Shown here piece after piece: positions 1-22,699 of a stretch of 55,602 nucleotides of DNA (position 1 is its first letter; each line of letters starts with the position of its first letter). Position numbers and translations under genes: made by a program. Under the pieces are notes generated by a model. It did not search any database. It was not told the DNA's origin and saw nothing but the letters and a program-made list of their open reading frames with translations. Origin of the DNA: a virus (lineage: Duplodnaviria > Caudoviricetes); the IMG/VR virus record IMGVR_UViG_3300042288_000346, positions 1 to 55,602 of that record. One strand, written 5' to 3'.

Positions 1-187
1 ACCGCGCTCCGGAAGGAGCCTTCTGCCGGCCCCACAACTGCAGAAGCGCAACCGACCCCGGTGGCACCTGTTGGAGAACCCGCAGCCACAGCCGAAACAA
101 CTACTGTTTCACAGCCTAGCACAACTGTTGTTTCTGACGCGCAAGCTGCAGCACCGACTGTTGAGCCTGCTGGAACAGCTGTTACCC
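1..187. repeat. Terminal direct repeat (circular assembly overlap), copy 1
   Basis: 1-187 matches 55416-55602 except position 60 (G) versus 55475 (A). The repeat lies inside one continuous ORF. Confidence 0.97.
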
Positions 188-3100
188 CTGTCGTTACGGA
201 TCAAGGGGTTACGGCTCCGGCTCTTGCTGTTGCCGCTGCACCAGTAACAGCTGCTCCCGCAGAGACAGAGGGTGCGGGAATTATCTCGACTGCAGACCTC
301 AAGCAGCAGCTCGTCGAGATCGATGCCGAAGCTGCCGCCCGTGCTGCAGAACAGGCTCTGGCCACGACTGAGCTGCCCGAAGGCCTTACTGTGGATAACT
401 CCGTCACCGAAAACTTCGGGCCGGATGACACACGCTTCGCCGCCTTCGAGTCGCCTACCGACAAGGAGCTGTATGTCCTTGGCAAGCTGAATCGTCGCCC
501 TGCAAAGACGCCTGAGCTGACGGAGACGGCGCGTCAGCTGACTTCCAAGGTATCTGAGGCTCTGGGTATCCCCGTCGAGGAAGTCGCCCAGAGGGCGGAG
601 GCGACCCGTGTGGCGACACAGAACGGGTTGTCCGGCGTCCAAGCTGGGGCGGTGTATCGAGTCCCGACAGGGATCACTACGCCTCCCGTCAGCCCCCTAA
701 TGCAGCTTGCGAGCGACCAGATCGGGGAAAAGTTTAGCCTCCCAGAAGGGGAGAAGGTTGTCATCCCCGAAGCGCCGGTTGACCCGGTGCGCACTAAGAT
801 CGCCTCCGTCATCAAGGATGCGTTCGGGGTGGACGTGGTGTGGGCCAGCCTGCCGAAGGGCGGCAAGGTCAAGACCAACAAGGGCCGCGAGCTGGTCGCC
901 ATCAACGGCGCACGCATTGCCGGCACGAATGCCATCCTGCTCGACGCCAACAACTACAGCTTCCTGAACACGCTGGGCCACGAGCTGACCCACGTTCTGG
1001 AGACTCAGTACCCGCAGCTTTATCAGCAGCTGATAACACTCGCCAAGGCGAAGGTCAGCAAGAAGTTCCAGAACCAGCTTCGCAAGGAAGTTGCTAACGA
1101 TGCTGAGTTCAACTCAGAGCTGGTGGCTGAGATGGTCGGCGAGCAATCGACTGATCCGAAGTTCTGGCAGGAAGTGTTCGACGCAGCTGGCGATCAGACT
1201 TCCGCTCAGGGATTCCTCGATGCGCTGAACAAGATCATCGACCGTATCCTGAGTGCGCTTCAGGGCTACCAGCCGATGGTCGTCCAGAGCCGCAAGGATG
1301 CACTGGCCGTGCGTCAGGCTGCTCAGCAAGCGTTCCAGCAGTGGATCACGGCACGACAACAGGCTGCTCAGCAGGTCGCCGCAGACCAGCAAGCCGCAGT
1401 GCAGGCTGCCGCAGCCGTTACTCGCCCAGCGCCAGCGGTCAATCCGTTCTTGGTCGGCACATCACTAGACCCAAATGCACCCAAACCGGCGGAGCTTGGC
1501 CCACCGAAGGTTCCACCTTCACGGCAGGCTCAGGTCAACATTGGCCAGAAGGGCCGCCGCTTTGTCACCTTTGCCGCTGACCTCGACAAGGATCTGTTCG
1601 AGCTTGGCGCTAAGCTGAAGAAGGCCGCAAAAACGCTGAGCAAGTCTGACCGTGAATCAGCCGACGCTCGTCTCGTTCGGTTTATGGCCGTCACCGGCCT
1701 GCCCCGCGCAGAGATGATCGATGTCGCAAAGAACTATCGAGATGCTGTCGTCAAGGCAGCGGGTGCTGTTCAGGAGGACGGCACCTACGAAGCCCCGGCA
1801 ACCAACATAGGAGAGCGTCGTGCCGTTGAAGAAAGGAAAGTCGAAGAGCGTCGTGAGCCGCAACGTGAGCGAGCTGATGAACAAGTACGAGAAGTCCGGC
1901 AAGATCGGGAGCAGCCGCCCGTCGAGCAAGCCGAAGGCGCAGAAGCAGGCGGTCGCGATCGCGCTGCAGAAGGCAGGCCGCAGCCGGAAGAAGTAGCCGC
2001 TGAGGAAGAAGTCGTAAGGGAGCTGCCGCAGTTCTCGCGTAAGCGTCCTGCGGTAGACCCCGACTTCGCCGACAGTGTTGCTGAAGATGTTGGCCTCAAC
2101 GCAGAACTATCTGAGGCCACGTCTCTCAAGTACCAGACCGGCAAGTCCGGCGAGGATCAGTTCAACACACCAGTTGTTGGCGGACTGACCAACACTGTTC
2201 TTGAGATTGAGCGTGCCCGTCGAGAAGGCACTCTTGGGCAGCTCGACCTCGACAGCGAGAGCGATCGCAATACTGTTGCGAAGATGCTTGCCGCCGAAGT
2301 TGTTGCTGCTGTTCGTGCCGGCGGTGGCGCTAAGGAGTGGTATGACAAGACCATCCGTCGCACTCTCGCTATGGCATCGCTCAAGTTTCCTGAGCTTTCC
2401 ACCGACAAGGAAGCGCAGACCGCATTCCGTCTGTCTGTTGCCATCACTTCGCAAGGCCTGAACGTAGAGGACAACCTCAAGTTCGCCATGCAGGTGTACG
2501 GTGAGTACAGAAAGAGCGGCACCTTCCCGCTCAAGGGGCAGGGCAAGAACGGCGGCGCGATGGTGAGCAACTTCCAGCTTGCCAATACGCTCATGGAAAA
2601 GATGGGCATGGAGCGATTCTCTCGCTTCCTTGAGACTGACTTCGTTGCGTCTGAGTTGAATGCAGTCGGCTTCAACATCGACGAACTTGCTGACGAGAAG
2701 ATCCTTGGCTCGTCTGTGTTCGGCCCGAAGATCGGCTTCGGCTTCTACTCGAATCTCTCTGGCAACTTCGAGCCTGTCACGATCGACATGTGGTTCATGC
2801 GAACCATTGGCCGCTTGATAGGCAAGCTTCGCGCTTTCGACGCCAAGCTGTTTGCCTCGCAGCGAGACAAGTTCCGTGCAGCGTTTGCTGTTGAAGGCGT
2901 CAACGGCATCTTCATCAATTCCCGCAACATGTCTGGCAGCCGTCTGTTCAGTGCAGACCTTGTGCAGAACGCGGCAACAGACGATGACGCAGCTGTTACT
3001 TTGGCCCGACTTGTTACCCGTGCGCACGAGCGTGACTTCAAAGTCAATCGCAAGGCCTACGACAACAAGACTCGCGTCAAGTCATCGCTAGTCAATAACG

Positions 3101-6100
3101 CGGCCAACATGCTAAAGTCCCTCGACAAGCCGAAGGATGCACCTTCGAGCGGGTCTGAGAGGCGCAACCTACGTGACATTGTTCGTCAGACAGTCTCCCT
3201 TGTTGAGGGTGTTGTCGGCGAGCGTATCCCGCCGGCTTCTATGCAGGCTCTTGTCTGGTATCCAGAGCAGGAGTTGTACAAGTCGTTTGGCGTGAAGCTT
3301 CGTGTAACGAGCCAAGACTATGCCGGTGCAATCCGTAAAATCCTTGAGAAGGAGGGATACAGTGGAAGAGAACTCAGCGCAGCAGCCGAATCTGGATCAA
3401 GAGGCGCACAACGAGTGGCTGGCCAGCCTCTCGAAGCCGAAGATGCTGGAGTTGTCGGACAAGTTGAACAGCCTGATGCTGCAGAAAGAGCAGGCCGCCA
3501 GCTCACCGCAAGAGAGCGTGAGCGACTCCTCGTCTCCGAAGTCATTAAGCGGTATCGACAGAGCAGTGCAGAGGCACAAGGGTCTTACAAGATCCGAAGC
3601 GCAGGAGATGGCCGACGCATTCGGGTTCTGAGTAATGACGCCAAGGCTGAATACAAGCCGGTCATTACTTTCAAGAATGCACTTGGAGCCGTAGGCAAGC
3701 CGGCTCCCACCATGTACGAGCTGGATGGCGGAGCGCCCTTGTTCCGTCAGGCCATCCAAGACTCGAAGAACAACAGCAAGTTTGGTGCTGCGGTCTACGT
3801 CTACGACGAGGCCGACTACGCCAACATGCGCCTGTTCATCTCTGATGACGGCAAGTCAGGCTTCGCCCTCAAGGGCAATGACATTGTCTCTGTGTTTAGC
3901 GGACAGAAGGGATCTGCCAACGCCATGCTGCAGCTTGCTGTGGATCAGGGCGGACAGCGGCTTGATGCCTTCGACACTGTTCTTCCTGAGCTGTATGCAG
4001 ACAACGGCTTCAAGGTTGTTGCTCGCGTTAAATGGAATGACGAGTACAGCCCTGAAGGCTGGGACAAGGCGACGTTCGCCAAGTACAACAACGGCGAGCC
4101 TGATGTCGTGTTCATGGTCTATGACCCGGCCAACGCTTCTGAGCTTGGCGGCAAGACCATTGAGAACTACGACGATGGCGTAGCTGCGCAGGAAGATGCG
4201 ATCGGCAAGCAGACTATCCAGTTCTCCCGTGTTCGCAGCGAGACAAATGCTGACGGCAAGCAGATTGCCAGCACGCCTGAATTCATCCAGAACTTCTGGA
4301 ACTGGTTCGGCGACAGCAAGATCGTAGACCGCCGTGGCCGCCCAAAGGTCATGTATCACGGCACGATTCCGCCCACTGTTGGCGCTGAAGAGTTTATCGA
4401 CCAAGGCATCAGCGTGTTCCGCCGCGGCACTGGTGGCGCGATCTTCGTGTCACCTGACGAGCGAGTTGCGAACACGTACGCTGGGCCGGGTGGATCTGTG
4501 TATCCATTGTATATACGCGCTGAGAATCCGTTCGACTTCGAGAATCCTGATCACGTCAAGCGAGTTCTGGATATCTGGGAGTCCAATAACGTCGGTATCC
4601 GCGAGACTCGTGAGCAGGCCATTGCCAAAGGCAAGTGGCAGATGATCGAGAACGTCGAGATCCAAGACGCCATCAAGCTTGCCGGCTTCGACAGCTACTA
4701 CGTGAAGGAGACTGGGGCCAAGAACCTCGCGCTGTACGACCCATCACAGTTGAAGTCAGCTGTTGGGAATGTTGGCGAGTTCTCGCCTGAGCGTCCTGAG
4801 ATCCAGTTCTCGAAGGTGCGTCAGGGCCGCAAGTACTGGCTGCCTGAGTTCGGTCGACTGCAGCGTTTGCTGCGTGGCGTGCAAAACGAAGTGCTTGCCA
4901 CTGCTCGTGCGCAAAGGGCTGTTGCTGCTCAGGGTGGCGTGCTGACTGACTCGACAGAGATCGAGTCGGCAATGCATCGCATGTATGGCCGCGCCGGAAA
5001 CCGTCTCGATCGCTTCCGCAAGGACGTAGTCGAGCAGATCCTCAAGCGTGCTTCTGACATGAACGTCAGCCTTGCAGACGTTGAGCTGTACTTGTACGCC
5101 AACCATGCCAAGGAAGCGAACCGTCGCATTGCTTCGATCAATCCGCAGATGCCAGATGGCGGCTCAGGCATGACGAATGCTGAAGCTGATCAGGTTATGG
5201 CAACGCTGCGGCAGGACATGCCACAGTTCCTGCGCACGAAGTCCATCGCAGATGAGATTCAGAACATCACAAAGATGACTCAGGCTGCGCTGGTCAATGG
5301 CGACATTGTCAGCCCTGCTGATTTGGCCGCTTGGAACGCCACGTACAACTACTACGTTCCGCTCAAGACATTCGAGCAGGCTGACGATCTTGGCCGGGTG
5401 ACTGGCAATGGCCGGTTTGACCTTGCCAATGCATTCTCGAAGCGTCGACTTGGTCGCAGCAGCAAAGCCGGCGCGATCGTCGAGAACATCTTGGCGGACT
5501 ACGAGGAAGCTGTTGTCGCTGTTGAGCGAAACAATGTACGCAAGGCGTGGCTGCAGTTTATCCTGAGCAACAAGGACAGCGAACTGTGGCAGGTCAACAA
5601 GCCTGTCATGCAGCGTGCGTTCTACAAGAACCCTGTCGAGGAAGTTCGATACCGCCTGACTATCCAGAAGGATGCGGAGACTCTCCCAGTCCGTGTGGGT
5701 GGCGAGGTGTATCACATGGTCATCAAAGACCCTGAGATCCTCGAAGAACTGCAGATGACGAGTGTCCTGTCGCAGTTCCCGGATACGATCAAGTCAATCC
5801 TTGGCGGCATGAATACGTTTGGCCGCACGCTATCCAAGCTGTGGACTGTGCTGTCGCCGCCGTTCGTGCTGATCAACGCATCTCGCGACATTCAGACATC
5901 GCTGATCAACACCGGCATCGACCAAGGGCTGTGGAGTTCCGCGAAGCTGTTGGCAACACTGCCGAAGGCTGCTTACACAGTGTGGCGTGCTGAGCGTAAC
6001 AACGCTTGGACTGGCGACCTGAAACAGTACTACGACATGTATCGTGCTGATGGCGGCAAGACTGGTGCGCTTGATCTGAGGCAGATCGAAGACCGCCACA

Positions 6101-7494
6101 GTGATCTGATGTCCATGTATCGCAACGCACAGGCGTCGATAGGTAAGCCACTGACGTACCACCGCCTGACCATGCGGTATCTGAAGGGCGTAGAAAACTT
6201 CATGATGGACATCAACGGTGCCATCGAAGGCGCTGCTCGTGTTGCCGCATACAAGGTCGCAATGGAGAACGGTAAGTCGCGCATCCAAGCGACTAACATT
6301 GCGAAGGAAATCACGGTCAACTTCAACCGTCGCGGCAAGTGGACTCCGGTGCTGAGCGGAATGTACCTGTTCTTCAACCCTGCAGTTCAGGGTGCAAAGC
6401 GCACGGTGAGCGCTGTGTTCAGCAAGCGTGGCGCTGCTGTCGCAACTGGGCTTGCAACCCTTGGATACTTCATTGCAGAGATGGCGGCCTCCGCTGTCGG
6501 TGACGATGAGGAGCCGTACTGGGATAAGCCATCAATGCGCCAGACTAAGCTGAAGAACCTTGTGTTCTTCGGGCCGAATGGCGAGACCTACAATGTCCCG
6601 CTGCCGTATGGCTTTGGCTTCTTCGTGAACCTTGGCTATGCGCTTCGTGACCTGAAGAATGGCGCAGACCCGTTAAAGGTCGGTGCGTTTATGCGAGATT
6701 CCGCATCGCTTCATTTCTCGCCGCTTGGCTCGATGGACAACATGGCGACCTTCCTGTCTCCGACGCTCATCGATCCGGCGATGGTTCTCATCACTGGCGA
6801 GAAGGAGACTGGCCTGCCGCTTATGCCGGAAGACTTCACTGGAGTCACCCCGGACAGCGAGCGGTACTGGAACAACACTCGCGATACGATGTTCCAGAAC
6901 GTAACTGCTGCTCTGTATGAGATGACCGGCGGTGGCGCTGGCGGAAAGATGGCTATCGACGTGTCGCCTGAGTCTGTCGAGTACATCACGTCGTTCCTGA
7001 CAGGCGGTGCTGGTACGTTTGTGAAGGATGTCATCAAGACATTCGATGCGATGGCCAACACCGGCACTGCGTCGGCCACTGAGCAGAACCTGATCCCGAT
7101 CTTGAAGGCCGTTCACAGGCAGCCCGACGGTCGGTATGACTCCAGCGCGTTCTACGAGAATGCCAAGGAGGCAAAGGAAGCCGCTCGTGACTTCAATGCG
7201 ATCATGGAGTCAGAGACCGAAGTGTCCGAAGAGAAGCTTGCCTACGCAGACTCTGTTGCTGGCATGGCCGCACTATCGCGGTTTGCAGACAAGCAGAAGC
7301 GAGCCATCTCAAACCTGCGCCAGCAGGACTTGGACATCCAGCAGGATGAAACTTTAACTAGGGAAGAGAAATATGGACTTCGTAAAGAAATTGCTGAGCA
7401 GATTCGTCAAACCCAAGTTGAGTTCAACGTCGCCTTCTACGCCGAGCGTCGAGCCGCCGAAGCAGAAGAAGCAGAAGGTCAAGCTGAAGAATAA
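1..7494 (+). CDS. Giant polyvalent virion ejection protein, C-terminal part (gene starts at 54495 and crosses the join; ~2,804 aa in total)
   Basis: Frame +1 is open from base 1 and continuous with the ORF from ATG 54495. It contains a zincin HELTH motif, a VTIDMWFMR/QALVW module, a GNAT-like LDAFDTVLPELYADNGF module, an ART-like YHGT...NPFD...YDPSQLKS module and an LPD38-like C-terminus. It is the last gene of the structural operon. Confidence 0.85.
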   Translation, partial: TALRKEPSAGPTTAEAQPTPVAPVGEPAATAETTTVSQPSTTVVSDAQAAAPTVEPAGTAVTPVVTDQGVTAPALAVAAAPVTAAPAETEGAGIISTADLKQQLVEIDAEAAARAAEQALATTELPEGLTVDNSVTENFGPDDTRFAAFESPTDKELYVLGKLNRRPAKTPELTETARQLTSKVSEALGIPVEEVAQRAEATRVATQNGLSGVQAGAVYRVPTGITTPPVSPLMQLASDQIGEKFSLPEGEKVVIPEAPVDPVRTKIASVIKDAFGVDVVWASLPKGGKVKTNKGRELVAINGARIAGTNAILLDANNYSFLNTLGHELTHVLETQYPQLYQQLITLAKAKVSKKFQNQLRKEVANDAEFNSELVAEMVGEQSTDPKFWQEVFDAAGDQTSAQGFLDALNKIIDRILSALQGYQPMVVQSRKDALAVRQAAQQAFQQWITARQQAAQQVAADQQAAVQAAAAVTRPAPAVNPFLVGTSLDPNAPKPAELGPPKVPPSRQAQVNIGQKGRRFVTFAADLDKDLFELGAKLKKAAKTLSKSDRESADARLVRFMAVTGLPRAEMIDVAKNYRDAVVKAAGAVQEDGTYEAPATNIGERRAVEERKVEERREPQRERADEQVREVRQDREQPPVEQAEGAEAGGRDRAAEGRPQPEEVAAEEEVVRELPQFSRKRPAVDPDFADSVAEDVGLNAELSEATSLKYQTGKSGEDQFNTPVVGGLTNTVLEIERARREGTLGQLDLDSESDRNTVAKMLAAEVVAAVRAGGGAKEWYDKTIRRTLAMASLKFPELSTDKEAQTAFRLSVAITSQGLNVEDNLKFAMQVYGEYRKSGTFPLKGQGKNGGAMVSNFQLANTLMEKMGMERFSRFLETDFVASELNAVGFNIDELADEKILGSSVFGPKIGFGFYSNLSGNFEPVTIDMWFMRTIGRLIGKLRAFDAKLFASQRDKFRAAFAVEGVNGIFINSRNMSGSRLFSADLVQNAATDDDAAVTLARLVTRAHERDFKVNRKAYDNKTRVKSSLVNNAANMLKSLDKPKDAPSSGSERRNLRDIVRQTVSLVEGVVGERIPPASMQALVWYPEQELYKSFGVKLRVTSQDYAGAIRKILEKEGYSGRELSAAAESGSRGAQRVAGQPLEAEDAGVVGQVEQPDAAERAGRQLTARERERLLVSEVIKRYRQSSAEAQGSYKIRSAGDGRRIRVLSNDAKAEYKPVITFKNALGAVGKPAPTMYELDGGAPLFRQAIQDSKNNSKFGAAVYVYDEADYANMRLFISDDGKSGFALKGNDIVSVFSGQKGSANAMLQLAVDQGGQRLDAFDTVLPELYADNGFKVVARVKWNDEYSPEGWDKATFAKYNNGEPDVVFMVYDPANASELGGKTIENYDDGVAAQEDAIGKQTIQFSRVRSETNADGKQIASTPEFIQNFWNWFGDSKIVDRRGRPKVMYHGTIPPTVGAEEFIDQGISVFRRGTGGAIFVSPDERVANTYAGPGGSVYPLYIRAENPFDFENPDHVKRVLDIWESNNVGIRETREQAIAKGKWQMIENVEIQDAIKLAGFDSYYVKETGAKNLALYDPSQLKSAVGNVGEFSPERPEIQFSKVRQGRKYWLPEFGRLQRLLRGVQNEVLATARAQRAVAAQGGVLTDSTEIESAMHRMYGRAGNRLDRFRKDVVEQILKRASDMNVSLADVELYLYANHAKEANRRIASINPQMPDGGSGMTNAEADQVMATLRQDMPQFLRTKSIADEIQNITKMTQAALVNGDIVSPADLAAWNATYNYYVPLKTFEQADDLGRVTGNGRFDLANAFSKRRLGRSSKAGAIVENILADYEEAVVAVERNNVRKAWLQFILSNKDSELWQVNKPVMQRAFYKNPVEEVRYRLTIQKDAETLPVRVGGEVYHMVIKDPEILEELQMTSVLSQFPDTIKSILGGMNTFGRTLSKLWTVLSPPFVLINASRDIQTSLINTGIDQGLWSSAKLLATLPKAAYTVWRAERNNAWTGDLKQYYDMYRADGGKTGALDLRQIEDRHSDLMSMYRNAQASIGKPLTYHRLTMRYLKGVENFMMDINGAIEGAARVAAYKVAMENGKSRIQATNIAKEITVNFNRRGKWTPVLSGMYLFFNPAVQGAKRTVSAVFSKRGAAVATGLATLGYFIAEMAASAVGDDEEPYWDKPSMRQTKLKNLVFFGPNGETYNVPLPYGFGFFVNLGYALRDLKNGADPLKVGAFMRDSASLHFSPLGSMDNMATFLSPTLIDPAMVLITGEKETGLPLMPEDFTGVTPDSERYWNNTRDTMFQNVTAALYEMTGGGAGGKMAIDVSPESVEYITSFLTGGAGTFVKDVIKTFDAMANTGTASATEQNLIPILKAVHRQPDGRYDSSAFYENAKEAKEAARDFNAIMESETEVSEEKLAYADSVAGMAALSRFADKQKRAISNLRQQDLDIQQDETLTREEKYGLRKEIAEQIRQTQVEFNVAFYAERRAAEAEEAEGQAEE

Positions 7495-10555: not shown

Positions 10556-11275
10556 TTAGAAAGGGATGTCATCGTTCAACTCTTCAACGCCACCGTTTGA
10601 GAGTTCAACGCGATCCTTTGTTGCGACGGCCCGTGAGTATTCAGGCGACTTCTGGATGGCTTCCTGCAGACCCTTGGAGAGGGACGAGAAGGCAGCCGCA
10701 TCGAAGTTGTCGAGAGAGAAGATCATGCTCTCGTTGACCTGCGGACTTGCCTTCATGCCCGGAAGCAGCGGCATGATCGATGCGATGTTCGCGTAGACCT
10801 TGCCGTTGTTGTTGGCGTGAACGATGTTGACCACGCAGGGCGCACCGATGATGTTCTTCATATCGAACCGCGCCTCTTCCTCCTTGGTGAACTGGCGACC
10901 GCGCCAACTCTCAAGGACAGAGCGAAGCTTGCTCTTCTCACCAATGCTTGCAGTGAACCGCTCGCTGACAGAGAACGGCTTGCCGGCCAACTTGCCGTCA
11001 GGGATCACAGCATCCGGCAGTTCCCAACTGATGAGAACCTTGCGCTGCTTCTTCTCGCTGCCCTTCCAGACAGAAGTCTGGGTTCCAAGGTCGATGATCC
11101 GGTAGCACCGGGCCACATGCGAACCAGCCGGCGGGGGAGCAAAGTCACTACCACCGCCACTGTTGTTTGCTGAAACGATAAAACTCATCTTCGCCTCCTT
11201 CTCGTGAAAAAACCTTTCGGCCATCGAGACCTGCTCGTGATAGGCCTGCGATCCGTCGTCTAGTTGGTCATCCAT
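10556..11275 (-). CDS. Single-stranded DNA-binding / recombination protein (alternative in-frame start at 11188)
   Basis: PPAGSHVARCYRIIDLGTQ OB-type pattern and acidic C-terminal DDIPF tail; adjacent to the exonuclease. Confidence 0.75.
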   Translation of the reverse strand: MDDQLDDGSQAYHEQVSMAERFFHEKEAKMSFIVSANNSGGGSDFAPPPAGSHVARCYRIIDLGTQTSVWKGSEKKQRKVLISWELPDAVIPDGKLAGKPFSVSERFTASIGEKSKLRSVLESWRGRQFTKEEEARFDMKNIIGAPCVVNIVHANNNGKVYANIASIMPLLPGMKASPQVNESMIFSLDNFDAAAFSSLSKGLQEAIQKSPEYSRAVATKDRVELSNGGVEELNDDIPF

Positions 11276-11691: not shown

Positions 11692-11915
11692 AACCCCCGC
11701 GCATCGTCGGTGACAACGACAGGGTGCGCGGGGTTATACCGGTACTGTGGGATAGCTTGAAACACCGGGCGGGGCGGCGAGGCTAGCACCCCAGAGCGAC
11801 AAGGCTGGCGGGTCATGCGACCGACGGGTCAGCGTGTGAAGGCAGATCTAGGATGGGCTAGGTCTGCTCACTCAGGGTCAGATCACGAGGCCTCAGTAGT
11901 ATCCTTCTGGCCTCA
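11692..11915 (+). ncRNA. Candidate structured non-coding element upstream of the replication genes
   Basis: About 300 nt without a credible ORF. Hairpins include CCCGCGCA...TGCGCGGG, GCAGATCTAG-GATGGG-CTAGGTCTGC and GAGGCC...GGCCTC. Confidence 0.45.
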
Positions 11916-11941
11916 TACTCAAAAAGAATTCAAACAGAGTA

Positions 11942-11971
11942 TTGACACCTGTTGAACCTTCCATGTAACTT
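11942..11971 (+). promoter_or_regulatory. Putative sigma70 promoter
   Basis: TTGACA-18 nt-TAACTT just upstream of the GAGGAGG RBS of the gene at 11990. Confidence 0.45.
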
Positions 11972-11989
11972 CTCGCTTGAGGAGGACGC

Positions 11990-12421
11990 ATGGAACTCAA
12001 TCACTTCCCGATCAAGATTTCGGTCAACCGCGAGGCGCGGGTGGCCTGTGTCACGCAGATCGTCCCCAACGGGGAACCGCAGAAGCTTTTCATTCACGCC
12101 GATCAGGCTCTGGAGATTGCTGACTTCCTGAGCAAGGAGTTCAAGCGCAGGGGCAAAGGCGTACCTGAAGGGGCGGACGCAGACTTTGAGCGGTTCTGGT
12201 CTGCCTACCCTGTCAAGACATCCAAGGCTGGTGCGCTGTCCTCTTGGAAGCGCAGCCATGCCAATAAGCACGTTGAAAAGATCCTCGCCCATGTCGAAGC
12301 GATGAAGGCCAGCGACCAGTGGAAGCGCGGATTCATTCCGCATGCGACCACGTACCTGAACCAGCGTCGGTACGAGGACGAGCAGAAGCAGGCTGAGAAC
12401 CCTTGGGACAATGCAATATGA
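11990..12421 (+). CDS. Replication initiator / replisome organiser, C-terminal-domain-like protein
   Basis: FERFWSAYP.K..KAGA...W and FIPHATTYLNQRRYED motifs typical of phage replication proteins; upstream of the helicase. Confidence 0.7.
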   Translation: MELNHFPIKISVNREARVACVTQIVPNGEPQKLFIHADQALEIADFLSKEFKRRGKGVPEGADADFERFWSAYPVKTSKAGALSSWKRSHANKHVEKILAHVEAMKASDQWKRGFIPHATTYLNQRRYEDEQKQAENPWDNAI

Positions 12422-14930: not shown

Positions 14931-15368
14931 ATGGACGAAACTCAGATTGTGTTTCATGGGGAGATCATGCTGCTTGGCTGGGCAGACAGCAGCACACGGG
15001 GCAGGACGGTGACGTTCCTGCTGGCTGAGGATTCAGACTCGCACCCGTTCAAGGACTTCACGATCAAGGCCGGCAAGCGATCGGGCCAGCGCTTCATGTG
15101 CGCACTGGCGGAGATCGGAGATGACGAGCAGCCGGTCAGGCAGGAACAGCGCAACTCACAGTTGGCCTATCTGTGGTGCAACGATCCCGACTTCCTGTTC
15201 TGGGCGAAGGCCAATGACGCAGGCGAGGCTCGTGAGCGAATGCTCAAGGCCTGTAGAGTGAACAGCCGCGGACAGTTGGATACAGGCGATGCGGCTGTTG
15301 CCTTCGAGCAGAAGATTAAGAAGCCGTACATCAAGTGGCGCAGCGAGAAGAACGCCGTCTCGCTATGA
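14931..15368 (+). CDS. Hypothetical phage protein
   Basis: GAGGAGG RBS; 145 aa. Confidence 0.7.
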   Translation: MDETQIVFHGEIMLLGWADSSTRGRTVTFLLAEDSDSHPFKDFTIKAGKRSGQRFMCALAEIGDDEQPVRQEQRNSQLAYLWCNDPDFLFWAKANDAGEARERMLKACRVNSRGQLDTGDAAVAFEQKIKKPYIKWRSEKNAVSL

Positions 15369-17117: not shown

Positions 17118-17141
17118 AAAAAAGGGGGGCCGAAGCCCCCC
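17118..17141 (-). terminator. Intrinsic terminator of the minus-strand early operon
   Basis: Minus strand reads GGGGGGC-UUCG-GCCCCCC followed by U6. Confidence 0.9.
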
Positions 17142-17146
17142 GCAAG

Positions 17147-19126
17147 TTAGGCTACCCGCCGGGTGTCACCGGCCTTCAACTGCTCGATCACCTTACGCAG
17201 AGCGATTGAGTGCAGGTCGCCAGCGTGGCGTACCGCCGCACCAAACTCGTACGCCTGACTGAGCAGGTCATTCGACGTGCCGATGCCGAAGGCGATGACC
17301 TCGACATCGAACATCGCCTTGCTGCAGCGCGTCATCTGCAGCACCTTCTGGGACTCGCCGAAGCCGTCGGTGATAACGATCACCAGACGCCGGCCCGACT
17401 TACGCTGCGACAGTTGTTGAACAACTGCGCGTAGGCAGGTGTAGTCCGGGGTGCCGCCGCTCGCGATCTGTCCCATCCTCACGAAGTGATGAGGGACTTG
17501 GCCAGCACGATCCTCGAAGCGCTTGGCGACCACGAGGACGCCGGCACGGGACGAGTCTCTATCATTGCCGCCCAGCAGATTCCCGAACATGTCGCGACCG
17601 CCGCCGTACTGGACGTGGTCGTAGGTGCTGGGTGATCGGAAGCCAACCACCTCACACTCAGCGCCAGCCGTCTCTGCGGCCTGAGCGATCGTCCAAGCAA
17701 GTTGGGCGGCGTTCTTGGCGTTCTGTCCGGCCATCGAGCCAGACATGTCGACCATGATGGACACCGAAGTCTCGATGCCCTCGCTGACCCAGCGGCGCTT
17801 GAAGACCGACTCGCTACCGCTCAGCATGCGCGGCGCACGGCGGCCATCGAACCGGCCACTGACCGACCCGCTGTCCCAGCCGCAACGCTCAGGAGCCTTG
17901 AGGATCTGGTACAGACGCGATTTCAGCGCCGGCAACACCGTCTTCGACAGCGTACGCGCTGCTCGACGCAGTCCGGCATCGTCCTTCTGCATCGATGTCC
18001 AGCGGCGCATTTCACTGCGGCCCGGAGGCGGGGCAGACGCCAACGAGATCGGCACCATCGTGCGCTCACGGATACGCTTGAACACGTCATCGATGTCAGG
18101 CTCAGGCGACTTGCACAACTGTTCGTCGTACTGTTCCTGCCTGTCCTCGTACGGCTCATCGCCGCCGTTGTTGGTGACAGCCTCGCCGTCCTCGCCTTCG
18201 TCGTCTCCGGACTCGATAGGCATAGGAGCGCTGTCGGCCTCGCCGGCTTCAGTCGTCTCAGACATCTCAGCCTCAGCCTGAGCGAGTTCAGCAGCATCGC
18301 TGTCGCCGTCTTCGGAACCGAACGACTCGTCGGAGTCTCCCGACTCAGAGTCGTCGTCTTCCGACTGTTGTGGCTGTTGTGACTGTTGCTGCTCCCACGG
18401 CTGCCGGCTGTCGGCACTCTGGTCGACAGGCTCGATGGCCTTCCAGCCTTCGAGGAACTGCATCGCCAGCCCCAGCGCTTGGCCAGTGCCGTCGCGATCC
18501 AGCGACAGGCTTGGCATCGCGTCAGCGACCGCCTTGTACAGGCTGCGCTTCGGCTCCGGGATTCGGTCGAGCAGTTTCTTGGCGAAACCGTTGCCGTCAC
18601 CCAGCGCGGCCCGACTGATCAGCGCGAGCGCGAATGGCGCACTGTTGATCGATGTCGGGTTGAACTTGTCATCGAGTTTGGACGTGAACTGCGACATCAG
18701 TCGCTTGAACCCAGACCGCGCACCGTTTGCGCGACCGGACGCAATCACCGCATGCTCGATGCGACCGTCCTCGATTCCGTTCCACAGATTCCGCAGCAGA
18801 GAATACTCCGGGCCTGAGTACCGGAGTAGGCTGCTTTGGTCGGTGTACGCGACGTGCCCGACCTCGTGGCTGGTGTAGGCCGCGATCAGGTCTGCCTCGA
18901 TGCGCGACACGAACGAGTTGTCGGGCATGCTGGGGTAGTTGATGCGGTAGGTCATCACCCTGCTACGGTCGGAAGTGAGCGCCCACTGGGCGAAGGCAAT
19001 CTCGCCGCCGAAGGTGACAGTGCCGGCCCCTGAGAACACGGCATCGCTGCCCAGCAGCGCTCGCAGTTGCTTCTGCGAGTGGACAAGTGCCGCGGCCTTG
19101 ACGGTCGCCGATTTAATCTTTTGCAT
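17147..19126 (-). CDS. CobT-like protein: N-terminal HEXXH metallopeptidase-like domain, acidic linker, C-terminal vWA domain
   Basis: HEVGH...NGIEDGRIE; D/E-rich linker; MIDAS motifs DMSGS, GGTP and ITDG. Confidence 0.85.
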   Translation of the reverse strand: MQKIKSATVKAAALVHSQKQLRALLGSDAVFSGAGTVTFGGEIAFAQWALTSDRSRVMTYRINYPSMPDNSFVSRIEADLIAAYTSHEVGHVAYTDQSSLLRYSGPEYSLLRNLWNGIEDGRIEHAVIASGRANGARSGFKRLMSQFTSKLDDKFNPTSINSAPFALALISRAALGDGNGFAKKLLDRIPEPKRSLYKAVADAMPSLSLDRDGTGQALGLAMQFLEGWKAIEPVDQSADSRQPWEQQQSQQPQQSEDDDSESGDSDESFGSEDGDSDAAELAQAEAEMSETTEAGEADSAPMPIESGDDEGEDGEAVTNNGGDEPYEDRQEQYDEQLCKSPEPDIDDVFKRIRERTMVPISLASAPPPGRSEMRRWTSMQKDDAGLRRAARTLSKTVLPALKSRLYQILKAPERCGWDSGSVSGRFDGRRAPRMLSGSESVFKRRWVSEGIETSVSIMVDMSGSMAGQNAKNAAQLAWTIAQAAETAGAECEVVGFRSPSTYDHVQYGGGRDMFGNLLGGNDRDSSRAGVLVVAKRFEDRAGQVPHHFVRMGQIASGGTPDYTCLRAVVQQLSQRKSGRRLVIVITDGFGESQKVLQMTRCSKAMFDVEVIAFGIGTSNDLLSQAYEFGAAVRHAGDLHSIALRKVIEQLKAGDTRRVA

Positions 19127-19135
19127 GACGATTCC

Positions 19136-20353
19136 TCACGCCGCTTCGGGCGCATTTGGGGAGTTGACATCGACCACGTCGGGCGTGACGACAGGCGGCG
19201 CGAGACCAGCCATCGCGGCCTCGATACCAGCGTCCGACATGTTCGCTTTCCATATCTGCTGCAGGACTTCACGCGATTCAGGCGATGCTCGATTGACCAT
19301 CGTCTGCTCGAATGCCAGTCGCGGCGGCACCTTGTCGGCCAGCGCCTCAGCAAGGTAGAACGCCTCGCGCAGCGTCGGGACATGGTCGAGTTGGCTAGAC
19401 TGACCAGCCTGCCGCATGACCGACAGCATGCTCACGATCAGCGTCGACAGGTTGCTGTGGACGCCAGTGCGGCTGCTGATGACCTGCGCTTCGTCCGCCG
19501 ATTGCAGGTAACTGAACTCGATCGTGCGAGCGAAGCGGTTGACGAACGCGACGTTCATCTCGCGCACCCCGGCGTACATGCCGGTGTAGTCGCCGCGACC
19601 GTTCGAGTTGTCCGCAGCCATGAACACCACGCCCGGAGCCTTGCGAATCACCTCGCCAGTCTCAGGCACCGTGACCACGCCCTCCGGCTCCAGCGGCGCA
19701 TGCAGCGCCGACAGGTACTCAGGTCGAGCGAACGACACCTCGTCGAGCAGGATGACTGCACCGGGGCGCACGAAACCGCGCAGGATGATGCCGTGCTGGT
19801 AGACGGTCGAGCCGTTCTTGACACGCTCGCCGCCGATGAACTCGTAGCGCTCAGCACCGCTGTCGAACGACACGCGGACGAAGGCGCGACCAAGGCCAGC
19901 GCACAGGTTGCGCACGAACTCCGTCTTGCCGGTGCCGGCAGGGCCAGCCAGCCACACGTTGCGGCCACGGGCAACAGCCGTCACAGCAGTGAACAGTTGC
20001 TCCGCGTTGAACTTGTACAACGGGTCGAGCGCGGGGGCTGCAGGGTCGTTGTAAACATCGACCTCGTACGCACCGTGCTTGCCGCGGATGCCGAAGACCT
20101 CGCGCAGCGACTTGCGAGCGACCACCTCGACGTTGGGCACCTCGACCGCCGCAGAAGGCGTAGGAGCCGCGATCGGTGCGAGGGAGCCTGAGATCAGGCC
20201 CATCGAGGAAATCGCCTCAGCGACCTTCTCCTGCGGCAGAGCGGCCACTTGCTCGATGAAGTCCTGCTTGGACTTGCGAGCGTAGTCGCCAGCGGAGCCG
20301 GACACCCGGCGAACCAACTCGACGAGTTGGGCCTTGGACATTTGGTTGATCAT
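19136..20353 (-). CDS. MoxR/CbbQ/CobS-type AAA+ ATPase
   Basis: Walker A GPAGTGKT, Walker B ILLDE, AADN, NRF and PTLRE motifs. Start placed at MINQ (20353), after the GAGG RBS. Confidence 0.88.
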   Translation of the reverse strand: MINQMSKAQLVELVRRVSGSAGDYARKSKQDFIEQVAALPQEKVAEAISSMGLISGSLAPIAAPTPSAAVEVPNVEVVARKSLREVFGIRGKHGAYEVDVYNDPAAPALDPLYKFNAEQLFTAVTAVARGRNVWLAGPAGTGKTEFVRNLCAGLGRAFVRVSFDSGAERYEFIGGERVKNGSTVYQHGIILRGFVRPGAVILLDEVSFARPEYLSALHAPLEPEGVVTVPETGEVIRKAPGVVFMAADNSNGRGDYTGMYAGVREMNVAFVNRFARTIEFSYLQSADEAQVISSRTGVHSNLSTLIVSMLSVMRQAGQSSQLDHVPTLREAFYLAEALADKVPPRLAFEQTMVNRASPESREVLQQIWKANMSDAGIEAAMAGLAPPVVTPDVVDVNSPNAPEAA

Positions 20354-20382
20354 GGGAGCCTCACAGTTGTTGTTGATTGTCT

Positions 20383-20445
20383 GACCATCGTCAGGCAGCG
20401 CATCACGCTGCGACAGGGACGCCTCACGGCGAGCCTGTTTCGGTC
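20383..20445 (-). ncRNA. Type II hammerhead ribozyme (HH2)
   Basis: Minus strand: GACC-GAAA-CAGG..CGCC(GUGA)GGCG..CCUG-UC^-GCAGCG(UGAUG)CGCUGC-CUGACGA-U-GGUC. Core complete with three stems; predicted cut between 20412 and 20411. Confidence 0.88.
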
Positions 20446-20624
20446 TATCGGGCCATCTCCTTGATGCCCTTGATCCGGCCATCGAAGTGGCCGAGTTGGT
20501 AGACGTAGGTGATCTGCGATCGAACGCAGGATTCAGACACCACGTAGCCATCTTTCGATGCCTGCTCGATGTACTTGAACAGTCGCTCGACAATCCGATC
20601 GACTTCTTCGTTTTCGTGTTTCAT
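20445..20624 (-). CDS. Hypothetical protein (59 aa)
   Basis: Manually translated as MKHENEEVDRIVERLFKYIEQ...KEMAR, with a GAGGAGG RBS. The stop codon abuts HH2. Confidence 0.7.
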   Translation of the reverse strand: MKHENEEVDRIVERLFKYIEQASKDGYVVSESCVRSQITYVYQLGHFDGRIKGIKEMAR

Positions 20625-20728
20625 TGCGAATCCTCCTCATCCAGCCAACCGAAAGCGATGTATCCGGCCAGTGCGAACACGGCCAGTGCGAGCGCCATGC
20701 GTGGCGCGTAGAACAGGAATGCGTCCAT
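20621..20728 (-). CDS. Small membrane peptide (35 aa)
   Basis: MDAFLFYAPRMALALAVFALAGYIAFGWLDEEDSQ; GAGGTG RBS and ATGA coupling. Confidence 0.6.
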   Translation of the reverse strand: MDAFLFYAPRMALALAVFALAGYIAFGWLDEEDSQ

Positions 20729-20736
20729 CGATCACC

Positions 20737-20991
20737 TCACAGGTCGAACAGCGAGACGCTGGTGGAGCGCACTTCCGACACGACTTCGGCGAGTTGCTCG
20801 TCGGTCAGAATCTTGCGCACCTTGGTCGAATCGATTCGGCTCGAAGCGCGTTCAGAGACGACGGCGCGGAAGACCTCGCCGCGGTACTCGCCAGCGCCAG
20901 AGTCGCGCAGGATTTTCTTGATGGCCTCAGCCTGCTGGTTGAGGGCGGAGATTTGTGCGTTGAGCGCACCCAGTTGGTCGACGATCTGCAT
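20737..20991 (-). CDS. Hypothetical phage protein (84 aa)
   Basis: VDQLGALNAQI...G.YRGEVFRAVV pattern; GAGG RBS. Confidence 0.75.
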   Translation of the reverse strand: MQIVDQLGALNAQISALNQQAEAIKKILRDSGAGEYRGEVFRAVVSERASSRIDSTKVRKILTDEQLAEVVSEVRSTSVSLFDL

Positions 20992-21019
20992 ATAGCCTCA
21001 CAGTTGTGTTGATGTTGTT

Positions 21020-21071
21020 GGTCTCGTCAGTGGCAGCATCACTGCCAGACCGGCTCACGCCGGTTTCGACC
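21020..21071 (-). ncRNA. Type II hammerhead ribozyme (HH1)
   Basis: Minus strand: GGUC-GAAA-CCGGC(GUGA)GCCGG-UC^-UGGCAG(UGAUG)CUGCCA-CUGACGA-GACC. Canonical core; predicted cut between 21048 and 21047. Confidence 0.92.
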
Positions 21072-21073
21072 TG

Positions 21074-21388
21074 TCAGAAGTTGTAGTCGTAGAACTTGAC
21101 CGGCTCGTCGGACAGGCCATAGCGCCGCTTCGCGGCATCCTTCCAGCCGTGCTTGCCAAGGCGGATGCGGACAACGCGACCGTCCGGGTCGCTCTTGATC
21201 AGCCACTGCTGGCTGCTCTGGTTGACCACCGTGCCGAAGAAGCCGCCGGGGACAAAGTCAGGCTTCCACGAGGGGTCGCGCTCAGCCTTCATGGCGCGTA
21301 TTTCGAGCGTCTTGTCGCTCACGCGCCGCACGATCTCGAAAGGGTTCACGTCGCTGTAGCCGTAGTGGTTGGCGTAGTTCATGTTCAT
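21074..21388 (-). CDS. Hypothetical phage early protein (104 aa)
   Basis: First ORF after the early leader; GGAG RBS; ends FYDYNF. Confidence 0.75.
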   Translation of the reverse strand: MNMNYANHYGYSDVNPFEIVRRVSDKTLEIRAMKAERDPSWKPDFVPGGFFGTVVNQSSQQWLIKSDPDGRVVRIRLGKHGWKDAAKRRYGLSDEPVKFYDYNF

Positions 21389-21411
21389 CTCCAGTTGTTG
21401 TTAACAGTTGT

Positions 21412-21647
21412 GACTCAGTGCAGCGTCCTAAGCGAGGGCGCTCTACTCAGTCGCGAGATTGATTCTCCGGTTCGTTGGGCATCGTCAGACTTTCGGGCGG
21501 CTGCTGTACTTGCAGGTCATTGCCTTCAACCCTACGGCTTCACCGATGCTTTAGGCCGGACTCCGTCTCAGGGAGCCGCCGGGCTGCTTGCGCTCATCCG
21601 GCACCAGAACCTTTGTTTGGGTGGCCCGTCTGGGAGGCCAGTGGTGC
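21412..21647 (-). ncRNA. Long structured 5' leader / candidate ncRNA of the early operon
   Basis: Serial helices: GCACCA...UGGUGC, CCGG..GC(GCAA)GC..CCGG, CUCC(CUGAGAC)GGAG, GCAUCG...CGAUGC, and an 18-bp imperfect hairpin at 21412-21452. Confidence 0.5.
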
Positions 21648-21649
21648 GT

Positions 21650-21678
21650 ATCCTGAACAGTTCCACAGTTGTTGTCAA
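21650..21678 (-). promoter_or_regulatory. Putative sigma70 early promoter
   Basis: TTGACA-17 nt-CAGGAT; the spacer contains the ACAACTGTG motif. Confidence 0.55.
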
Positions 21679-21933: not shown

Positions 21934-22082
21934 TGCCCGGACTGTACGAGAACATTTGGAAAAAGCGCCGCCGCATCGCCGCAGGAAGCGGGGAATCGAT
22001 GCGCAAGCCCGGAACTAAGAGCGCACCCAGCGCTGCAGACTTCCGGAAGGCCTCTAAGACAGCGAAGCGCGGCAAGAAGTGA
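21933..22082 (+). CDS. Small basic protein (49 aa)
   Basis: Manually translated as MPGLYENIWKKRRRIAAGSGESMRKPGTKSAPSAADFRKASKTAKRGKK; coupled at both ends. Confidence 0.7.
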   Translation: MPGLYENIWKKRRRIAAGSGESMRKPGTKSAPSAADFRKASKTAKRGKK

Positions 22083-22699
22083 GCGAGGGTGAGGCAGTGA
22101 GTCAGACCAAGCGTGAGGAAAAACGCCGCGCCGCAAGGGAGCGGAAGGACGCGATCCAGCAGCAGGAGTTGTCCATCGAGAGGGAGAGAGAGCAGGCAGC
22201 CTTCAAGGCACTGCAGGAGTCCAGACAGAAGGGAATCATGGGGAGACCCAGTTCCTACACAGACGAGAGGGCAGACGAACTCTGCACATGGATCGCACAG
22301 GGGAACAGCCTGCGCAGTTTCTGCAAGATCCACGGGATGGAAGCCCAGACGGTGTACCGGTGGATGCGGGAGCGCCCCGACTTCCAGCAACGCTACGCCC
22401 GCGCACACGAGGATCGTGCCGACAGTCTGGCCGACGAGATGTGCGACATCGCCGACGAGGTGGCCGCCAACGGGGGCAGCATCGAGGCCGTACAGGCCGC
22501 CCGACTGCGGATCGACACCCGCAAGTGGATTGCCGCCAAGTTGCGACCGGGCAGGTGGGGGGAGGTGCAGGCACCCAAGGCGCAGACCGCCGTCACGTTC
22601 AAGATCGGACTGCCCCTCATGGACAGGGGTGGGGGTGGAATCACAATAGACGCTACCCCTGTTGCTGAGGCGCTCCCAGACGGGGCAGAGGCGGCCTAA
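22079..22699 (+). CDS. terS: Terminase small subunit (Sf6 gp1-like)
   Basis: GRPSSYT...I..G.SLR..C...TVYRW...ARLRIDTRKW.AAKL.P pattern. Confidence 0.85.
   Translation: MSEGEAVSQTKREEKRRAARERKDAIQQQELSIEREREQAAFKALQESRQKGIMGRPSSYTDERADELCTWIAQGNSLRSFCKIHGMEAQTVYRWMRERPDFQQRYARAHEDRADSLADEMCDIADEVAANGGSIEAVQAARLRIDTRKWIAAKLRPGRWGEVQAPKAQTAVTFKIGLPLMDRGGGGITIDATPVAEALPDGAEAA

Follow-up and report, generated by a model that had tools for sequence, protein, structure and literature searches.

The DNA analyzed here, herein referred to as the window, is the whole 55,602-base stretch of the virus record IMGVR_UViG_3300042288_000346 (Duplodnaviria; Caudoviricetes), the completeness of which is estimated by CheckV at 100%. 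On the minus strand of the window, a leftward operon of six genes contains two predicted type II hammerhead ribozymes, herein named HH1 and HH2. The order of the elements is gene A, HH1, genes B, C, and D, HH2, the gene for an ATPase, the gene for a vWA protein, and a terminator. The operon diverges from the gene for the terminase small subunit (22079-22699, plus strand). The features are listed below from right to left; R1 designates the covariance model described further on, and numbers with an L designate the loci compared.

21389-21445, minus strand: leader of gene A; aligns with the post-hammerhead leaders of L009 and L085; a broken core-like stretch lies before it; no R1 match
21074-21388, minus strand: gene A, 104 aa, phrog_19789, function unknown; first gene in the operon
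21071-21020, minus strand: HH1, predicted type II hammerhead; supported by sequence, site descriptor, R1 (71.6 bits), Rfam RF02276 (26.7 bits), and fold
20992-21019, minus strand: C/A-rich leader after HH1, 28 nt; Shine-Dalgarno (SD) word GAGG at 20999-20996; ends at the gene B ATG (20991)
20737-20991, minus strand: gene B, 84 aa, no family match
20621-20728, minus strand: gene C, 35 aa, hydrophobic, no family match
20445-20624, minus strand: gene D, 59 aa, no family match; stop codon TAG extends into the first base of HH2
20445-20383, minus strand: HH2, predicted type II hammerhead; supported by sequence, site descriptor, R1 (68.7 bits), Rfam (20.6 bits), and fold
20354-20382, minus strand: C/A-rich leader after HH2, 29 nt; SD word GAGG at 20362-20359; ends at the ATPase ATG (20353)
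19136-20353, minus strand: AAA_5 / CobS-like ATPase, 405 aa; PF07728 (E 4.4e-15), phrog_249 (E 1e-48)
17147-19126, minus strand: vWA / CobT-like protein, 659 aa; PF11775 CobT_C (E 4.3e-06), phrog_1576 (E 9.3e-28)
17124-17141, minus strand: intrinsic-terminator-like hairpin that closes the operon; 7 G-C pairs followed by a T run

A previous examination of the same letters, herein called the sequence-only reading, had placed the ribozymes between genes, each with a stop codon at or near its start and a C/A-rich leader and ribosome-binding site after its end. The coordinates, and the recurrence of this layout in other phages described below, agree with that placement. Thus, HH1 begins 2 nt past the TGA of gene A (21076-21074), and HH2 shares its first base, a G, with the end of the TAG of gene D (20447-20445). 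Both leaders in the window have a C+A content of 0.68-0.69 and end in CAACUGUGAGGCU.

Written 5' to 3' on the minus strand, with the predicted cut shown as a caret, HH1 is GGUC-GAAA-CCGGC(GUGA)GCCGG-UC^-UGGCAG(UGAUG)CUGCCA-CUGACGA-GACC and HH2 is GACC-GAAA-CAGG..GCC(GUGA)GGC..CCUG-UC^-GCAGCG(UGAUG)CGCUGC-CUGACGA-U-GGUC. Both elements have complete CUGACGA and GAAA cores with all of the conserved hammerhead bases (C3-U4-G5-A6-N7-G8-A9 and G12-A13-A14), and in both the cleavage triplet is GUC. The parts follow in the same order, namely a stem II strand, GAAA, the stem III hairpin, UC^, the stem I hairpin, CUGANGA, and the other stem II strand. Stems I and III are therefore capped by loops and stem II (4 bp) is open, which is the type II permutation. 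The predicted cut lies at 21048/21047 in HH1 and at 20412/20411 in HH2, so that the 3' products begin with bases 21047 and 20411, respectively. The minus-strand sequence bears out the two complete cores and the two cut sites named in the sequence-only reading.

The two elements differ in detail. Stem III of HH2 has 10 bp with a 2x2 internal loop and a GUGA cap. HH2 also has an extra U (20387) between A9 and G10.1, while in HH1 the G10.1-C11.1 pair directly adjoins A9. The HH2 allele with this U was found in the window, L006, L008, and L010, and the allele lacking it in L004, L005, L007, L009, and L085. Since separate assemblies carry either allele, the extra U is a natural polymorphism. A viroid hammerhead with an extra base at the A9/G10.1 position was reportedly described by De la Pena and Flores in 2001. 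The bases flanking HH1, A 21072 and A 21019, are probably part of the ribozyme; HH2 is flanked by A 20446 and A 20382.

The occurrence of such elements by chance was evaluated with a site descriptor that combines the core words with minimum lengths of 3 bp for stems II and III and 4 bp for stem I. The descriptor has two sites in the window, versus a mean of 0.03 in 200 dinucleotide shuffles (194 with no site and 6 with one). Relatives were fetched by protein probes and comprise 62 viral loci for gene A and 24 for the ATPase, i.e., 86 loci with 444,630 partly redundant bases. In these loci, the descriptor found 36 sites on the sense strand and none on the antisense strand. For both HH1 and HH2 in isolation, the minimum-energy fold is the exact three-way junction (z -3.75 and -3.07, respectively).

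A search against the Rfam hammerhead models, which the sequence-only reading had proposed, gave a divided result. RF02276 (Hammerhead_II) is the top family for both elements in a 1.5-kb search, with 26.7 bits (E 0.0081) for HH1 and 20.6 bits (E 0.33) for HH2; both values are below the RF02276 gathering score of 37 bits. Neither element was listed in Rfam scans of the whole window. The same holds for relatives: six related loci gave 8 matches to RF02276 at 27.1-35.8 bits, none of which reaches 37 bits. Because the Rfam scores fall below the threshold, the assignment to the family rests on the core, the topology, and the comparative data. Other ribozyme classes were not found in the window at E up to 0.5. 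One further model match, at 15062-15116 on the plus strand of the window, was rejected; it scores 16.2 bits with R1 and 9.2 bits with Rfam, lies inside an open reading frame (ORF), and lacks the CUGANGA core. Weak R1 matches of 12-14 bits in L010 (6034-6052), L076, L082, and L084 were also rejected.

The comparative data were obtained with R1, a covariance model trained on 8 distinct hammerhead copies. Among the 62 gene A loci, R1 finds 19 copies, distributed over 11 loci; in the ATPase loci it finds 17 strong copies, and three copies are in L085. A wider set consisted of 80 further IMG/VR loci seeded by a 17-letter motif that spans the 3' part of the core and the tail. Strong R1 matches were found in 28 of these 80 viral loci, 51 matches in total, and most of the additional copies do not contain the seed motif. 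As a control, the same 17-nt 3' motif occurs in at least 80 bacterial and archaeal loci, and the 80 loci listed (576,226 bases) had no R1 match. The resulting alignment has 42 rows of distinct sequences from 28 phage loci, including a weak match of 23.8 bits in L139.

In 10 distinct close relatives, 97.5% of the stem cells are paired, and 11 of the 16 pairs are doubly changed, with no pair altered on a single side; in the 42 distinct sequences, 98.5% of the cells are paired and 12 of the 16 pairs are doubly changed, all of these counts being partly shaped by the pairing-aware descriptor and model used to pick the sequences. The paired percentages are inflated by this ascertainment, because both tools reward pairing; double substitutions between orthologous copies are exempt from it. 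Such substitutions include a change from C-G to U-A in stem I of the orthologous HH2 in L085 and a change from A-U to G-C in stem I of the orthologous HH1 in L010. The 42 sequences have 197 doubly changed cells versus 56 +/- 5 in shuffles, and with slid partners only 32-46% of the cells are paired. The A15.1-U16.1 pair is A-U in all 10 close relatives and in 41 of the 42 sequences of the wider set. In the 42 sequences, the triplet is GUC in at least 36 and GUA in 2, the other 4 being unresolved by the fixed-offset script, and N7 is mostly C (22) or U (19), with a single A.

The sequence-only reading had taken the differing and still paired stems as a sign of selection for function, and the compensatory changes in relatives confirm selection on the fold. 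It had treated the shared GUGA loop in the same way, and here the relatives argue otherwise: GUGA is a GNRA-type cap, and GCGA, UUCG, GGGA, or long inserts occupy its place in relatives, with the whole of stem III rebuilt under a UUCG cap in L085 and L009. Since the cap is swapped out in this manner, it is no evidence of a specific function. Judged by their sequence and its conservation, HH1 and HH2 are genuine type II hammerheads with a fold under selection.

The alternative that HH1 and HH2 are decayed or inactive look-alikes with no present function is very improbable in light of these data. It would agree with the scores below the Rfam cut-off, with the extra core base of HH2, and with the presence of relics in this phage group. 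The cores are intact, however, the stems are paired at the percentages given above with many compensatory changes, and the placement is conserved. True relics, moreover, look clearly different: their core is broken, and stem III and GAAA are lost.

Published type II hammerheads have, in the majority of cases and not in all, a pseudoknot between loop I and the 3' tail in their consensus (PMC3088659, in excerpt). The copies in the window could form such a pseudoknot with 5 bp and 4 bp, respectively (shuffle p 0.06 and 0.21). A loop I-tail pseudoknot of at least 4 bp was found in only 7 of the 42 relatives. Own tails are no more complementary to the loops than swapped ones (111 vs. 116 +/- 4.7; 447 of 500 permutations as high or higher), and in HH2 of L085 the loop is changed with no matching change in the tail. 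The type II pseudoknot is thus not supported for this group, on the basis of the 7 in 42 relatives and the lack of an excess over permuted tails. A compact subgroup lacking the pseudoknot lies below the Rfam cut-off, and routine annotation therefore under-counts phage ribozymes.

A different pattern is conserved in its place. The base before stem II (position -1) is A in all 42 sequences, even outside stop codons, and the base at position +1 is a purine in all 42, this position being preset by the seed pattern in one copy per locus. Loop I has the form U (40 of 42)-N-A (33 of 42)-Y (29 of 42)-G (37 of 42). In most natural hammerheads, loops 1 and 2 interact through the UNmYN / RNnA motif, which includes a U-A reverse Hoogsteen pair (Dufour et al., 2009; PMC2632901, in excerpt). 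Because positions -1 and +1 are the last and first residues of loop 2 in hammerhead numbering, the pattern found here corresponds to this motif. Probably, then, these ribozymes use the classic contact between loop 1 (UNmYN) and loop 2 (RNnA) with loop 2 opened, and not a pseudoknot. If so, good activity at low Mg2+ is to be expected. The likeness to the published motif extends to the U and the penultimate pyrimidine of loop 1 and to the 5' purine and 3' A of loop 2 (PMC2632901, in excerpt). The pentaloop UGGUG of the CarSV minus strand is cited in the same excerpted source as conforming to the motif, and the UGAUG loop of the window resembles it. In contrast to the published cases, loop 2 is unclosed here, its ends being the bases that flank the open stem II, and the contact is deduced from conservation.

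The position of the ribozymes relative to genes was analyzed in 44 distinct contexts. An upstream ORF of at least 40 codons ends between -12 and +3 of the ribozyme in 36 of them and between -2 and +1 in 33. On the 3' side, 41 of the 44 contexts have an SD-like word and the start codon of a frame of at least 30 codons within 90 nt (median 26 nt, range 15-80), and the leaders have a mean C+A content of 0.72. This layout of stop codon, ribozyme, leader, and SD is common to a sizeable group of uncultured phages. The sequence-only reading had asked whether the positions are conserved in related phages. For the copy on the ATPase side the answer is positive: in all 11 contigs with ATPase identity of at least 78% and upstream DNA available, the ATPase start is preceded by a hammerhead at a distance of 25-29 nt. 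The copy between genes A and B is less stable. HH1 was found at this junction in the window and in L004-L007, while in L018, L019, and L085 a hammerhead precedes gene B at 0.26-0.3 kb downstream of gene A or in another upstream context. In L010 the same HH1-type cassette precedes gene A, and in L009 a cassette stands before a small ORF, about 190 nt from gene A on its upstream side. A relic was found in L085 at 1299-1334.

The best explanation for these observations, and one in which we have moderate confidence, is that HH1 and HH2 are functional self-cleaving processors of intercistronic mRNA regions within one leftward operon. Cleavage, the chemistry of the ends in vivo, and the effects on stability and translation are what we infer here. 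Each ribozyme would fold on the nascent polycistronic RNA and cut after GUC. The upstream fragment would then end 23-36 nt past its stop codon with GAAA, the stem III hairpin, and one further base (a UC end with 2',3'-cyclic phosphate). The downstream fragment would begin with a 5'-OH flush on the stem I hairpin of 6-7 bp, followed by an unstructured C/A leader, GAGG, and the start codon. The operon would in this way be split into A, B-C-D, and ATPase-vWA units, each capped by hairpins, provided with a standard 5' untranslated region (UTR), and insulated from upstream sequence; the stability and translation of the units could differ from one another. The computed folds of the predicted products have a flush 5' hairpin, a 3' hairpin, a G-poor leader, and an accessible SD.

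Both a 5'-OH and a 5'-terminal hairpin hinder RNase E when it depends on the 5' end, and 3' hairpins hinder 3' exonucleases. To our knowledge, type II is the sole hammerhead permutation that leaves a hairpin on both of the new ends. The proposal of the sequence-only reading that the phage transcript processes itself into stabilized units is consistent with this anatomy, in which hairpins stand at both predicted ends; as an idea it is not new, having been put forward in 2011. In that study, clustered hammerheads were proposed to cut long phage transcripts into mRNAs of operon or gene length (Perreault et al., 2011; PMC3088659, in excerpt). A 2019 review repeats the processing proposal and, in the excerpted text, calls the purpose still undefined and in need of more work (PMC6765202). 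Three type II hammerheads in prophage context cleave in vivo in Desulfovibrio vulgaris (PMC8782182, in excerpt). An early gene of the haloviruses HF1 and HF2 has a hammerhead 13 nt before its start codon, and a mapped 5' end lies within 3 nt of the cleavage site (PMC3088659, in excerpt). A full-text literature search, with most subscription journals outside its scope, turned up no experiment that tests what intercistronic hammerheads do in a phage operon. Both the kind of element and the proposed role are already known, and some of the sequences analyzed here may already be present in the alignments of Perreault et al.

Several observations weigh against a processing role. Besides the ascertainment in the covariation counts, the scores below the Rfam gathering score, and the extra U in the core of HH2, the minimum-energy fold of the HH1 precursor with its flanks is an alternative structure and not the hammerhead. 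None of the 12 contigs with ATPase identity of 66-70% has a ribozyme, either by R1 or by Rfam at E up to 1, and in these contigs the upstream ORF is tightly coupled to the ATPase start. The interval between genes A and B also contains no hammerhead in L008, L009, L010 (14-nt spacer), and L021. The ribozymes are thus dispensable in close as well as in more distant relatives. Additionally, a contig of RNA run X2, derived from a diverged relative, spans the HH2 site (19816-20492), which reflects either uncleaved RNA or DNA carry-over. The RNA-run evidence consists of Logan assembled contigs, which cover 0.11-0.16 of the sampled words, gaps in cover being uninformative; in the four RNA runs compared, the contigs are pieces of diverged relatives, and the assemblies carry no information on RNA starts or ends.

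The variable presence bears on a second explanation, in which the hammerhead with its C/A leader and SD is a portable cassette or recombination module that persists through mobility or modular exchange more than through a benefit to the flanking genes; cleavage may then be needed for spread, or may be incidental. We consider this account unlikely, although several findings agree with it. The HH1-type unit found before gene B in the window stands before gene A in L010, with no difference in the leader up to the ATG, and the X2 contig has the same join. Presence varies among phages with flanking genes that are 89-100% identical. The relic of L085 at 1299-1334 has a counterpart upstream of gene A of the window, where the leader of gene A is probably, by its alignment, a relic of a third cassette and not a ribozyme. 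In a contig of RNA run X1, similarity stops at 21066, within the 5' edge of HH1, and L149 and L161 have 5 and 6 copies in 3-4 kb. Neither transposition machinery nor target duplications nor terminal repeats were seen around the cassettes, however, and the copy before the ATPase gene is stable in all 11 close relatives. The strong purifying selection on the catalytic core and on the three stems, moreover, shows that the ribozyme itself is in use. Exchange as a cassette is compatible with a processing role and does not exclude it.

The contact of the ribozymes with stop codons bears on a third explanation, namely a conditional or down-regulating switch. Here cleavage would uncouple or destabilize one side, for example to limit or time the expression of the ATPase and the vWA protein, and folding would be controlled by ionic conditions or by ribosomes that terminate translation at the overlapping stop codon. 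In 33 of the 44 contexts, stop codon and ribozyme abut or overlap each other, and the invariant A(-1) forms part of the stop codon where the two abut (UAA) or overlap (UAG), HH2 being one such case. Because of this, a terminating ribosome would cover stem II, GAAA, and part of stem III. The natural coexistence of two HH2 alleles, with and without the core U, is also in line with a switch, and regulated cleavage was raised for phage hammerheads by Perreault et al. (PMC3088659, in excerpt). On the other hand, cleavage is irreversible, so occlusion would only delay it; aptamer-like insertions are absent; and the hairpin-capped products look made for stability and not for decay. The tight spacing between stop codon and ribozyme may just reflect the compactness of phage genomes. 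A switch thus seems unlikely as well.

Elements of the last two explanations can be combined. The succession of stop codon, hammerhead, C/A leader, and SD would then be a translation-gated portable expression cassette, i.e., a self-insulating 5' UTR that moves between junctions. In abutting and overlapping contexts, the A(-1) that the tertiary contact would require belongs to the upstream stop codon, so that occupation of this codon by a ribosome or release factor would keep the ribozyme from folding. This combination is speculative and rather improbable; if true, cleavage would report the translation of the upstream cistron, and phages could swap genes regardless of the upstream context.

A fate of the RNA after double cleavage has also to be considered. 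RtcB-type ligases join 5'-OH and 2',3'-cyclic phosphate ends, which are the ends of a doubly cut segment. The 636-nt B-C-D segment (21047 to 20412) could thus be released and then joined into a circular or ligated RNA by a ribozyme or by an RtcB-type ligase, for which its end chemistry would be suited. The possibility was mentioned by Perreault et al., who, according to the excerpted text, detected no spliced or circular products (PMC3088659). The 5' half of HH2 and the 3' half of HH1 cannot form stem II, since GACC would face GACC. No back-splice joint of 20412 with 21047 was found in the RNA-run contigs compared, and the sole joint seen (21379 to 20989) represents a different gene order in a relative. 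Circularization of B-C-D is extremely unlikely, because the halves of the neighboring ribozymes cannot pair in stem II and the 2011 study found no such products.

The processing reading can be compared with known systems. In the early mRNA of phage T7, RNase III cuts intercistronic sites and produces units with structured ends. RNase III is a host protein enzyme, and it leaves 5'-phosphate and 3'-OH ends. The intercistronic splitting of a polycistron would be the same here, whereas the cuts would be made by the RNA itself, with 5'-OH and 2',3'-cyclic phosphate as the new ends. RiboJ was engineered from a satellite-RNA hammerhead and an added hairpin. The arrangement in the window is similar to that of RiboJ-like insulators, in which a ribozyme before the ribosome-binding site removes the upstream context and leaves a new 5' hairpin (PMC6206723 and PMC8383906, both in excerpt); increased expression of ribozyme-insulated genes is stated in the title of the former. 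Unlike RiboJ, the elements found here are natural and of type II, and the stem I hairpin is itself the 5' cap.

The hammerhead before the early helicase gene of HF1 and HF2 likewise lies a short distance before a start codon and in a polycistronic unit (PMC3088659, in excerpt). According to that excerpt, the viruses are archaeal, the core is a variant tuned to high salt, the element is a single copy outside the present sequence group, and the 5' end was mapped. Compared with the type II hammerheads described so far (PMC3088659, in excerpt; RF02276), those of the window have the same core, permutation, phage context, and occurrence in multiple copies flanking single genes or short blocks. They differ in the 5-nt U-N-A-Y-G loop I on a 6-bp stem, in the fixed 4-bp stem II between an invariant A and a purine, in the lack of support for the loop I-tail pseudoknot, and in the scores below 37 bits for all copies tested. 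New in this group are the uniform architecture of stop codon, ribozyme, leader, and SD, the probable replacement of the pseudoknot by an opened loop-loop motif, the natural contrasts in presence and alleles, and a whole subgroup, as judged from all copies tested, that is missed by the Rfam threshold.

The role of self-cleaving ribozymes in phages and bacteria has been in question since 2011, and this phage group provides a natural test bed for it. The same gene pair is available with a ribozyme (11 contigs) and without it (12 contigs), and the same junction with and without HH1. A further contrast is provided by the two natural HH2 alleles, which are one core base apart. The layout is uniform, and the hairpin-capped products are predictable.

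Among cultured phages, Streptomyces phage Tefunt (L178, NC_054665.1) has five complete type II matches and a sixth one cut off at the end of the locus. The R1 scores are 29.6-36.8 bits, and the positions within the locus are as follows.

1567-1622
1967-2024
2617-2673
3607-3662
4597-4657
5596-5643

The Tefunt hammerheads have a short stem II and a longer loop I. They are located in one block of small hypothetical genes near the right end of the genome, mostly in gaps between annotated genes, and may serve as a laboratory model for punctuated operons. The nearest cultured phage with gene A (53% protein identity) is Pseudomonas phage Itty13, which has no hammerhead in the 8-kb region examined. 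Records of Ralstonia phages, which have a 23-nt stretch in common with HH1, were considered and rejected, the one record checked (L177) having no hammerhead by R1.

Dense arrays were observed in uncultured phage contigs. L161 (974-4178) and L149 (1345-3984) have six and five hammerheads, respectively, about 0.4-1.1 kb apart and over 3-4 kb in total. Almost all small genes of these two contigs are provided with a ribozyme and C/A leader of their own, and several copies have a palindromic GGCC stem II. In L141 (2951-4021), three hammerheads are followed by long leaders that consist almost entirely of C and A (e.g., repeated AACCC units), and an SD ahead of the AUG is not recognizable, which suggests that translation in L141 starts independently of an SD on the cleaved, unstructured leaders.

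Further observations concern the region upstream of gene A and the rest of the window. At 21476-21492 on the minus strand, GAAA-GUC-UGACGAUG is followed by a CCCAAC-type tail and resembles a hammerhead with stems I and III deleted; this stretch of the gene A 5' UTR may be due to chance or may be a collapsed relic. At 21673-21678 on the minus strand, some 290 nt ahead of gene A and between the divergent genes, a perfect TTGACA is followed by CAACAACUGUGG. This TTGACA is a candidate -35 element for the operon; a scan for consensus promoters called no full promoter in this region. A full-length match to RF02932 (Betaproteobacteria-1 RNA; 90.2 bits, E 1.8e-15, cut-off 49.4) was found at 11696-11813 on the plus strand, between the minus-strand ORFs 10556-11275 and 11930-12343, and hints at a betaproteobacterial host. 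An ORF of 2,477 aa was found at 61-7494 on the plus strand; over the C-terminal 850 residues, its product matches giant phage proteins without assigned function (phrog_14770, E 2.2e-113; phrog_616; phrog_10691).

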